The notes beneath the pieces were generated by a model. It saw nothing but the letters and a program-made list of their open reading frames with translations. It had not been told where the DNA came from and made no database searches. A stretch of DNA of 64,000 nt from Armatimonadota bacterium. GTDB taxonomy: Bacteria; Armatimonadota; SYMT01. Both the position numbers and the translations under genes were made by a program. This document shows, piece after piece, positions 37,160 to 37,640 of this stretch; the first letter of the stretch is position 1; each line of letters opens with the position of its first letter. The stretch spans positions 32,001 to 96,000 of the forward strand of contig JBKBRF010000020.1 of the NCBI GenBank assembly GCA_046292385.1, given 5' to 3'.

Positions 37160-37640
37160 TTCCGGCTGGACTAGGTCAGTTTTCGCAGCTCCCGGAAACT
37201 CGGGTTTCACGGAGGTAGCGCAGGGGGAACTCTAAGCCATCAAATCCTGGAGCGTTCTCACCCCTCCAGGTGCTGGCCTACGCAGGCAGTGGAGGTAGCC
37301 ATCGATGACGCCGCCGGACTCCATATGCAGATGACCCCCACGTGGGGTGTCGCATCCGTTCAGGCCGTGCGACTACGCAGAAGTCCCGTTCCCGCGAGTG
37401 CCACAACAGGCTGCTAACCGCCGTGAAGATGAGGTTTCGGTTAGCCGGCGGGTGAAGGGTGTGCGAGTACGTGCTGCGCCGGGCGGATTCCAGCCCGGTG
37501 GGCCGCGCCGGGAGTCGCGAGGGCGGACGAGAGCCGCGCGACCCGAGAGGCGGAGGGATGGTCCTTCCGCAGCGGACCGCACCAATGAGGGTGAAAAACT
37601 AGCTTGTGAATAGCGATGGGGCGCCGCGGTGCGCCCCATC
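37160..37640. ncRNA. Candidate large structured noncoding RNA, family unassigned
   Basis: At least eight stem-loops tile the region; possible long-range pairings; no protein-like ORF. Confidence 0.5.

Follow-up and report, generated by a model that had tools for sequence, protein, structure and literature searches.

The 64,000-nt stretch of an Armatimonadota genome analyzed here (contig JBKBRF010000020.1, positions 32,001 to 96,000; hereafter the window) carries, at 37251-37591, an RNA that several public RNA libraries contain. With high confidence we take this interval to be a free-standing, single-copy and strongly expressed RNA gene on the plus strand, whose sole module recognizable beyond the genus is a translation start that is very probably used. 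Our best reading, to which we give about an even chance, is that of an independent RNA that begins with a Pro-Pro mini-gene on which ribosomes stall; that such stalling would serve as a sensor is put forward tentatively and may well not hold. A first-pass annotation had marked 37160-37640 as a large, ornate noncoding RNA of about 480 nt. It was right about the presence of an RNA gene and wrong about its identity, having overlooked a ribosome-binding site (RBS) and a micro open reading frame (micro-ORF) at 37291-37334.

Expression of a discrete RNA

Part of the interval 36900-37900 is contained in 20 public sequencing runs from ten studies, and eight of these runs are RNA libraries. The contigs of four RNA runs, from four studies, were placed on 36900-37655, the part to the left of an octamer repeat, and cover only 37251-37591 (~341 nt). 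Run X4 gives a single 341-nt contig, 37251-37591, without any difference from the window. Run X11, a size-fractionated metatranscriptome, gives a contig at 37258-37479 (depth 1235) and an overlapping one at 37450-37591 (depth 1447), the latter ending at the same base, 37591, as the contig of X4. The contigs of runs X19 and X20 lie at 37344-37514 and 37254-37445, respectively. Depth is zero in all four RNA runs across 36900-37237, on the side of the neighboring dehydrogenase gene, and across 37602-37655. Contamination of the RNA libraries with DNA is formally possible and unlikely, because the depth exceeds 1200.

The RNA contigs differ from the window at 0-4 bases. Three positions vary: U37360C converts a predicted G-U into a G-C pair, and the other two are predicted to be unpaired. 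Most DNA runs contain a fraction of 0.27-0.52 of the 1001-nt query, and the RNA itself accounts for a comparable fraction (0.34); the RNA therefore seems better conserved than its flanks among close relatives. The contigs themselves are strandless, and the strand was assigned from the promoters and T-tailed terminators of relatives. The true 5' end probably lies near 37241-37250 and the 3' end probably near 37591 or at a hairpin at 37615-37640. From the interval of about 480 nt proposed at first, the part 37251-37591 is thus expressed, and the left 85 nt (37160-37244) are promoter or spacer and not RNA. A pairing of the two ends, also suggested at the time, would need a strand at 37178-37186 that lies upstream both of the RNA contigs, which begin at 37251, and of the inferred transcription start.

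Run X11 holds one more sequence that touches this region. Its contig record 3 (536 nt, depth 10.6) has exactly 37450-37479 in common with the window and then diverges; the contig may come from a related RNA in a different organism or from a join made in assembly.

A translation start kept as amino acids

Relatives of the RNA were sought in the window's own family (f1) and in a second family (f7). The window's class consists of f1 and one further genome only, and f7 therefore belongs to another class. BLASTN with the 511-nt stretch matched none of 60 related genomes, and because of this the relatives were located through orthologues of the upstream dehydrogenase gene. Three f1 genomes have such orthologues, at 57-59% identity, and two of the three loci contain a block of 32-42 nt that matches window positions 37290-37331 and stands at an equal distance 3' of the stop codon. 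The shared block reads GGAGG, 8-9 nt, ATG ACN CCN CCG GAC. In three genera, and also on two metagenome contigs, the module stands at the same offset after an orthologous dehydrogenase gene.

Of 401 genomes of the phylum, 29 contain the 16-mer ATGACNCCNCCGGACT, each of them once, compared with nine genomes for a reversed control. Fourteen of the 29 loci (four f1, ten f7) are intergenic and have a Shine-Dalgarno sequence, and the rest lie in coding contexts. A one-base variant of the 16-mer adds two further f1 genomes, and metagenome contigs add four more f1-type sequences; a metagenome pattern that joined the core to a genus-specific 12-mer had no matches. R1, a sequence-only covariance model for which 43 sequences of the 45-nt core were used, detects the unit in five of the six other f1 genomes, which makes six of seven f1 genomes overall. 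In f7 it matches 32 of 42 genomes at E<=0.1, and 26 of these were accepted by context. The distribution across the phylum is patchy. Mismatch pattern, BLAST and R1 all failed to find the unit in the genomes G001 (95% complete) and G007 (88% complete), and the R1 matches in five other families of a 151-genome phylum sample were rejected, as all of them fall within long ORFs.

The f7 unit is clearly a separate gene. A sigma-70-type promoter of the form TTGNNN-N16-18-TANNNT lies 158-195 nt ahead of the ATG in 17 of 26 loci, and a GC hairpin with a T-rich tail follows 183-284 nt past the ATG in at least 16 of them; most genomes have one copy, with flanking genes that vary between genera. The f1 leader is shorter, with a -10-like box 63-84 nt ahead of the ATG, a lineage-specific hairpin and then GGAGG. 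The sole multi-copy case among the accepted units of the phylum is an f7 contig with two matches to the core model 2.1 kb apart (G388:C56:2566-2597 and 4695-4726).

The ten f1 and 26 f7 sequences reveal how the start of the micro-ORF varies. Codons 2-5 show third-position changes only. The Thr codon at position 2 is ACG, ACC, ACA or ACT (in f7, ACG 23 and ACT 3), the first Pro codon is CCA or CCG (CCA in all 26 f7 sequences), the second is CCG in 33 and CCT in three (f7: CCG 23, CCT 3), and the Asp codon at position 5 is GAC in 30 and GAT in six (f7: GAC 20, GAT 6). One sequence has ATA instead of the ATG start codon. Beyond codon 5 the sequence, the length of the ORF (7-42 codons) and the stop codon are all variable. 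The synonymous-only pattern is not a search artefact, because R1 penalizes every mismatch equally, and kinship among the genomes cuts the number of independent codon changes to perhaps four to six. As all deviations are synonymous, the start of the peptide appears to be under selection; judged from the codons, the signature points to selection on a translated Met-Thr-Pro-Pro-Asp start and not on a protein. Because the first five codons are kept as amino acids, the micro-ORF is very probably translated.

Outside this module conservation fades quickly. The tail of ~260 nt is unalignable between f1 genera. Among ten f7 sequences, RNAalifold supports one internal hairpin (GCGCG-ACGUAAC-CGCGC type, five compensatory cells) together with the terminator, and this hairpin is present in nine of 25 f7 sequences. 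An alignment of the f1-type loci L211, L214 and L032 has compensatory changes in 30 of 113 predicted pairs, three sequences being too few to weigh. In the f7 leader (about -75 to -20), AGGAGG-N5-CCACGR pairs with a downstream YCGUGG (L022-L025, L219, L224, L227, L232, L236-L240). This pair covaries between CCACGAA/TTCGTGG and CCACGAG/CTCGTGG, and its AGGAGG is kept even without a start codon after it. An upstream 'ORF1' of f7 (16-19 codons, its stop overlapping the ATG) was considered and dropped as not universal, six of the 26 loci having no ATG-started frame there.

Anatomy of the unit in the window

All features of the unit lie on the plus strand. The promoter-like stretch TTTCAC-N17-AACTCT (37205-37233) is a weak, inferred sigma-70 match, and an alternative -10 box, TCTAAG, can be read at 37231-37236. 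The stretch aligns with better promoters at an equal offset in relatives, namely TTGACA-N17-TAAGAT in L034 and CTATAAG/CTATAAA in L052/L209/L053. A scan of 36900-38300 for consensus promoters and terminators returned none of either kind. The stem search places a 5' hairpin with a 7-bp stem and an 11-nt loop at 37246-37270, and every f1 relative has a hairpin of differing sequence between the -10 box and GGAGG.

The Shine-Dalgarno sequence GGAGG (37291-37295) stands 9 nt 5' of the ATG. It is found 8-9 nt ahead of the ATG in all ten f1 sequences, and most of the 26 f7 sequences have AAGGA(G) 7-9 nt ahead of theirs. The micro-ORF (37305-37334), ATG ACG CCG CCG GAC TCC ATA TGC AGA TGA, encodes MTPPDSICR in nine codons plus stop. 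An interrupted hairpin (37325-37355, core palindrome 37335-37348) carries the last three codons and the stop in its 5' arm. Relatives have a hairpin of unrelated sequence at or just 3' of the end of the ORF: in L034 an 11-bp stem includes the stop codon, and in L032 a 5-bp stem lies within the ORF. In the window, L034 and L032 the hairpin overlaps or follows the ORF end; a conserved pair of mutually exclusive helices could not be defined.

Further 3', an 8-bp hairpin with a 17-nt loop that contains GAAGAUGAG was found by stem search at 37413-37445. Hairpins with a loop of the AAUGA/GAUGA type are seen in six of ten f1 sequences (the window, L032, L211, L214, L053 and L052) at comparable offsets and on differing stems, and their recurrence as a conserved feature is suggestive only. 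The expressed block also holds three GC-rich hairpins (37477-37500, 37514-37542 and 37550-37570), without alignable counterparts in other genera. The 10-bp GC hairpin at 37615-37640 lies outside the RNA contigs and has no T tail; the primary transcript may terminate there, and the terminator scan did not call the hairpin. In relatives a hairpin, usually with a T-rich tail, lies 183-320 nt 3' of the ATG.

Folding, known RNA families and coding tests

The individual structural elements listed in the first-pass annotation were largely found. For six of its eight hairpins a contiguous stem of 6-10 bp is present, inside or coinciding with the interval it gave (37246-37270, 7 bp; 37413-37445, 8; 37477-37500, 8; 37514-37542, 6, within a hairpin drawn at 37509-37545; 37550-37570, 9; 37615-37640, 10). 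The remaining two, 37189-37214 and 37325-37355, appear only as interrupted stems in the minimum free energy (MFE) fold. The hexamers of a suggested pseudoknot are present as well, TCACCC at 37258-63 and GGGTGA at 37450-55 and 37589-94.

Compared with shuffled sequences, these elements do not stand out. The MFE of 37150-37660 is -228.8 kcal/mol, compared with -224.5 +/- 7.0 kcal/mol for 100 dinucleotide shuffles (z -0.61; 26 of 100 shuffles equal it), and the minus strand of the same interval reaches z -0.15. For the expressed part, 37245-37591, z is -0.21 and 37 of 100 shuffles are as stable. Stems of at least 6 bp number 17, compared with 15.3 in shuffles (107 of 300 reach 17). Those of at least 7 bp (10 compared with 5.9; 23 of 300 reach 10) and at least 8 bp (5 compared with 2.0; 19 of 300 reach 5) are mildly high. 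The hairpins are not above the level expected by chance for a sequence of 66% GC, and the RNA is structured in the ordinary sense, without an ornate conserved fold. With no excess of folding energy, and with the 3' two thirds unalignable between genera of one family, the description as 'ornate' fails. The description as an unassigned RNA stands: it is an expressed, single-copy RNA of ~340 nt that belongs to no Rfam 15 family and has relatives.

All 4227 models of Rfam 15 were scanned. In the whole window no match at gathering covers the region, and 37160-37640 has none at E <=10, which includes the covariance models of OLE, GOLLD, HEARO, ROOL, raiA, group I and II introns, leaders and small RNAs (sRNAs); tmRNA, 6S RNA and SRP RNA (RF00023, RF00013, RF00169) have no match in the region either. 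At the element in seven relatives nothing matched at E <=1. The first-pass annotation had compared two flanking strands with the T-loop strands of RNase P RNA and considered binding of tRNA. The RNase P model (RF00010, gathering score 100 bits) has no match in 37050-38200 at E <=10, and the genome encodes its canonical RNAs elsewhere: rnpB at G000:C30:68037-68410 (265.7 bits), tmRNA at G000:C4:266287-266642 (164.8 bits), 6S RNA at C58:3656-3858 (65.3 bits) and SRP RNA at C31:58976-59072 (54.2 bits). Because of both results we reject the analogy to RNase P, and the suggestion of tRNA binding finds no support.

An ordinary protein-coding stretch was likewise considered and rejected. There is no sustained codon-position GC signal across the whole stretch, Pfam has no family for four local ORFs of 88-162 codons, and tblastn of all forward-frame peptides against the relatives found no longer conserved ORF and recovered the core alone.

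Similar units in other phyla

When GGAGG, 6-10 nt and a 15-mer were sought in one genome per species, at least 120 loci were returned. Among the matches listed, many are ordinary genes starting with MTPPD or chance matches in GC-rich DNA, and we estimate that chance alone could give about a hundred such loci. About 25 of the matches listed are intergenic short ORFs that lie behind a promoter and 120-300 nt ahead of a terminator: 17 in Alphaproteobacteria, five in Thermoanaerobaculia and three in other Acidobacteriota. The 17 alphaproteobacterial units share additional similarity in the spacer 5' of the ATG. In a 151-genome sample of one alphaproteobacterial order, R1 gave 22 matches, of which 17 were judged to be real units. 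All of them keep Pro-Pro; Thr or Ala occupies position 2, and position 5 holds Asp, Glu, Asn, Lys or Thr. Given their sequences, the units of other phyla may be homologous to that of the window or convergent with it. Among 20 loci from other phyla searched with Rfam (E <=0.1), only L156 matched, with two sub-threshold matches to plant microRNA families that we take to be spurious.

Two groups of these units have peculiarities of their own. In the alphaproteobacterial loci L093, L263 and L281 a ParE/GyrB-like gene (recognized by eye from its N-terminus) lies on the same strand, 3' of the unit and a hairpin, and cis control of this gene is possible in these lineages. In Thermoanaerobaculia the micro-ORF has 31 codons in four loci (L090, L094, L096 and L200) and 48 in L122; the peptides are partly alike (MTPPD.R..P.P.A...D.FGG), and a palindromic TTGACTAGTCAA box lies 3' of the terminator.

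Viral contigs gave 20 matches, among which no RNA unit was recognized. About 16 are starts of ORFs of at least 28 codons beginning with MTPPD, and the four short ones (L287, L291, L296 and L302) have no GGAGG. In the papers searched, the MTPPD string appears in five, none of which is on bacteria judging by titles, and the listings and abstracts on EF-P, polyproline and leader peptides mention no free-standing unit of this kind, a scope that does not extend to supplementary ribosome-profiling tables. A search for antisense targets in the own genome gave none above chance (best 18 nt, E 0.035), short seeds being beyond its reach.

A proposed ribosome-stalling mini-gene and its alternatives

The residues that are retained resemble those known to hold up ribosomes. 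Passages in PMC12856214 and PMC8092293 describe that Pro-Pro followed by Asp, Glu or Asn slows peptide-bond formation and needs EF-P, and that proline with acidic residues at the start of the chain can destabilize the ribosome; PMC8129111 shows that the choice of proline codon tunes pausing. In this context the short ORFs mgtQ, mgtP and mgtL of Salmonella, as described in PMC8092293 and PMC12856214, offer the closest parallel: their Pro or acidic codons slow or abort ribosomes and thereby switch RNA structure, mgtQ having eight codons and mgtP responding to prolyl-tRNA and EF-P. By analogy, a ribosome would load ~45 nt from the 5' end of the RNA and meet Pro-Pro-Asp within five codons, and its dwell time or abortion at codons 4-5 would set the fate of the downstream RNA. 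Candidate effects are the melting of the stop-codon hairpin, the shielding of the 5' end from RNases, and the folding and 3'-end formation of the ~260-nt tail. The level or conformation of the RNA could then report translation capacity, that is EF-P activity, prolyl-tRNA or Mg2+.

The unit combines traits of several known systems. It is close to a leader ORF in that a short ORF has its own RBS (GGAGG 9 nt ahead of the ATG; nine codons, 7-42 in relatives) and keeps its regulatory codons (synonymous-only changes in codons 2-5 of f1 and f7; Pro-Pro invariant in the alphaproteobacterial units). It departs from one in that no regulated gene lies downstream, the next gene being EamA on the opposite strand and the contigs stopping at 37591. 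With mgtL, mgtP and mgtQ it shares a very short ORF behind an RBS with early Pro and/or acidic codons, where, in the mgt ORFs, ribosome occupancy picks between hairpins. The mgt ORFs, however, lie in mRNA leaders or intergenic regions and control the next gene in cis, and there is no sequence similarity; the unit, in contrast, has its own promoter and terminator in relatives, contigs that end at 37591 and no same-strand gene after it.

Dual-function sRNAs such as SgrS/SgrT, RNAIII/delta-haemolysin, SR1/SR1P and Spot 42/SpfP have a conserved functional peptide and a known base-pairing seed. The unit resembles them as an abundant RNA, a few hundred nucleotides long, that is transcribed on its own and has an RBS and a small ORF, and as an independent unit with a discrete RNA product (seen in the contigs and in the promoters and terminators of relatives, the window's promoter being weak). 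It differs in that it keeps five residues only and no target was found. STAB-SD of cryIIIA and the stalled ribosome on the ermC leader are ribosome-dependent 5' stabilizers that head the mRNAs of ordinary genes; the trait in common is a strong Shine-Dalgarno sequence close to the 5' end of a very stable RNA, which may be accompanied by a stalling ORF, and we know of no Pro-Pro rule for such stabilizers. The likeness to tmRNA lies in an abundant RNA of ~350 nt with a short reading frame that engages ribosomes, but tmRNA carries a tRNA-like domain and lacks both a Shine-Dalgarno sequence and an AUG, and this genome has its own canonical copy. RNase P RNA is of comparable size with many hairpins, whereas the unit lacks an Rfam match (E <=10) and a conserved core common to its relatives.

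Several points weigh against a stalling mini-gene as the key to this RNA. The contigs lack strand and true ends, so that 37251 and 37591 could mark strain divergence, and the 3' end at 37591 falls within a predicted small hairpin, 5' of the 10-bp hairpin. Translation of the micro-ORF is argued from the type of codon conservation, and the Shine-Dalgarno sequence is predicted to be mostly paired (unpaired probability 0.02-0.38 in the MFE ensemble). The four synonymous sites of f7 are far more uniform than such divergent genera would predict, and RNA-level constraint on the same bases is therefore likely, which speaks against a purely peptide-level reading. As the tail is unalignable and a single helix is supported in f7, a common function of the tail is not evident. 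No same-strand gene follows and no antisense target stands out, which leaves the proposed sensor without an output; the relatives' units have no conserved neighbor gene, and the opposite strand carries the longest downstream ORF of at least 120 codons in about 16 of 26 f7 loci as well as in the window. Lastly, the units of other phyla have just ~20 nt in common with the window.

In one alternative, the view of the first-pass annotation, the RNA would be purely non-coding and structured, and its GGAGG...AUGACNCCNCCGGAC block would be an untranslated motif to which a protein or the 30S subunit binds, as a decoy or standby site. The high abundance, the discreteness of the block and the near-invariance of synonymous sites across at least four f7 genera all fit, CCNCC is inherently complementary to GGAGG, alphaproteobacterial group B can pair GGAGGU with ACCUCC as the window pairs GUGGAG with CUCCAU in the MFE fold, and the second, upstream AGGAGG of f7 is kept even where no ATG follows. 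Such a motif would not explain, however, why variation falls exactly on third codon positions, counted from an invariant ATG, or why Pro-Pro stays in Alphaproteobacteria when residue 5 changes; the pairing of Shine-Dalgarno and Pro codons is not kept across members, and neither a folding-energy excess nor an Rfam match speaks for a structured RNA. We consider this explanation unlikely. The same weight goes to a base-pairing sRNA whose RBS and stalling mini-gene serve only as a 5' stabilizer, a parked ribosome blocking RNases as in the STAB-SD elements and the ermC leader of Bacillus, and whose lineage-specific tail acts in trans. A Shine-Dalgarno sequence ~45 nt from the 5' end, very high abundance and a tail that evolves fast between genera and is nearly invariant among close relatives would be expected of it, as would variants that are unpaired at two sites and turn a predicted G-U into G-C at the third (U37360C). 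Yet target complementarity in the own genome does not exceed chance, and a stabilizer would not require that Thr-Pro-Pro-Asp be retained at the peptide level.

ORF, hairpin and terminator are arranged as in an attenuator, and in L093, L263 and L281 a parE-like gene does follow on the same strand after a hairpin. An orphan leader whose downstream gene was lost or moved, leaving a transcribed remnant without a role of its own, is nevertheless very unlikely: a single copy is kept in six of seven f1 and about 26 of 42 f7 genomes amid differing neighbors, the longest downstream ORF of at least 120 codons runs on the opposite strand in the window and about 16 of 26 f7 loci, and the RNA is present at high levels and hardly varies among close relatives. 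That the peptide of 7 to 42 residues is itself the product would agree with the constraint on residues 1-5 and with a residue 6 that is mostly Cys, Tyr, Ser or Phe in this phylum. But only five residues are conserved, the remainder varying in length and sequence even within a genus, residue 5 is variable in Alphaproteobacteria, and ~260 nt of untranslated RNA are retained 3' of the ORF, which makes a micro-protein gene a poor candidate that we would hardly expect to be borne out. Fold scores near zero (z -0.6 and -0.2), hairpin counts within the range of shuffles and a pattern that also arises by chance within genes might suggest a mere GC-rich spacer with chance hairpins and chance matches. 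The discrete, deep RNA coverage, a module that keeps its offset from the orthologous dehydrogenase gene across three genera and on two metagenome contigs, and the f7 promoters and terminators at fixed distances leave almost no room for this.

If the mini-gene is translated and a Pro-Pro stall sets the state of the RNA, cells would read their own translation capacity via an RNA. The stalling mini-genes mgtL, mgtP, mgtQ and SecM act in cis on the next gene, as far as the sources describe them, whereas here the device would head a self-contained and abundant RNA; two classes of one phylum retain it, and a similar form is found in two other phyla. A bolder generalization, which we regard as rather improbable, is that these units form an undescribed, scattered class of 'ribosome-performance reporter' RNAs, in which a five-codon Met-Thr-Pro-Pro-Asp/Glu start tests EF-P, prolyl-tRNA or Mg2+ and the state is relayed in trans via the tail. 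If true, such RNAs would be a global monitor akin to 6S RNA or tmRNA in Armatimonadota, Acidobacteriota and Alphaproteobacteria, abundant in soil metatranscriptomes. On a more practical level, seemingly empty spacers between convergent genes of GC-rich genomes can conceal strongly expressed RNA genes, which folding energy and family libraries both miss.

Genomic setting

The RNA gene lies in a gap of ~980 nt flanked by a convergent gene pair in the window, a short-chain dehydrogenase gene on the plus strand (36283-37149; adh_short, E 1e-45) and an EamA-type transporter gene on the minus strand (38129-39037; E 5.4e-46). As the first-pass annotation had said, neither a nuclease nor a reverse transcriptase is adjacent. 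GC content falls from 0.73-0.78 in the dehydrogenase gene to 0.62-0.65 across 37100-37500. The interval 37160-37640 is unique DNA with one copy in the genome and at most six short BLAST matches per 20-nt bin. The idea of a relic of a mobile RNA finds no support here, given a single copy, no repeat copies in 37160-37640 and no counterpart recognized in the viral contigs.

To the right of the RNA gene a repeat zone begins, with 32-273 short BLAST matches per 20-nt bin, and the right half of the gap (37640-38140) consists of repeat families with tens to hundreds of genomic copies each. Directly 3' of the RNA gene, at 37659-37779, lies a perfect tandem array of an 8-nt unit (GAGACGGA; 15.1 copies, 100% matches), whose bins (37660-37779) have 176-273 matches elsewhere in the genome per 20 nt. 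A 16-nt near-palindrome of the CGCCCTGGAGGGGCGG type follows in three copies at 37794, 37871 and 37970 (within 37794-37985), and its family has ~40-50 short matches per bin across the genome. The 5' hairpin of the RNA (37246-37270) and these near-palindromes have CCTGGAG/CTCCAGG arms in common.

In the window an L10 gene (34007-34567, by Pfam) and an ORF of 128 codons (34622-35008) lie upstream by 2.3 kb. In the f1 relative L031 (G003:C108, 1-130) the RNA unit sits after the end of a gene and a strong terminator, and this gene end may be that of ribosomal protein L7/L12, whose C-terminus it resembles.

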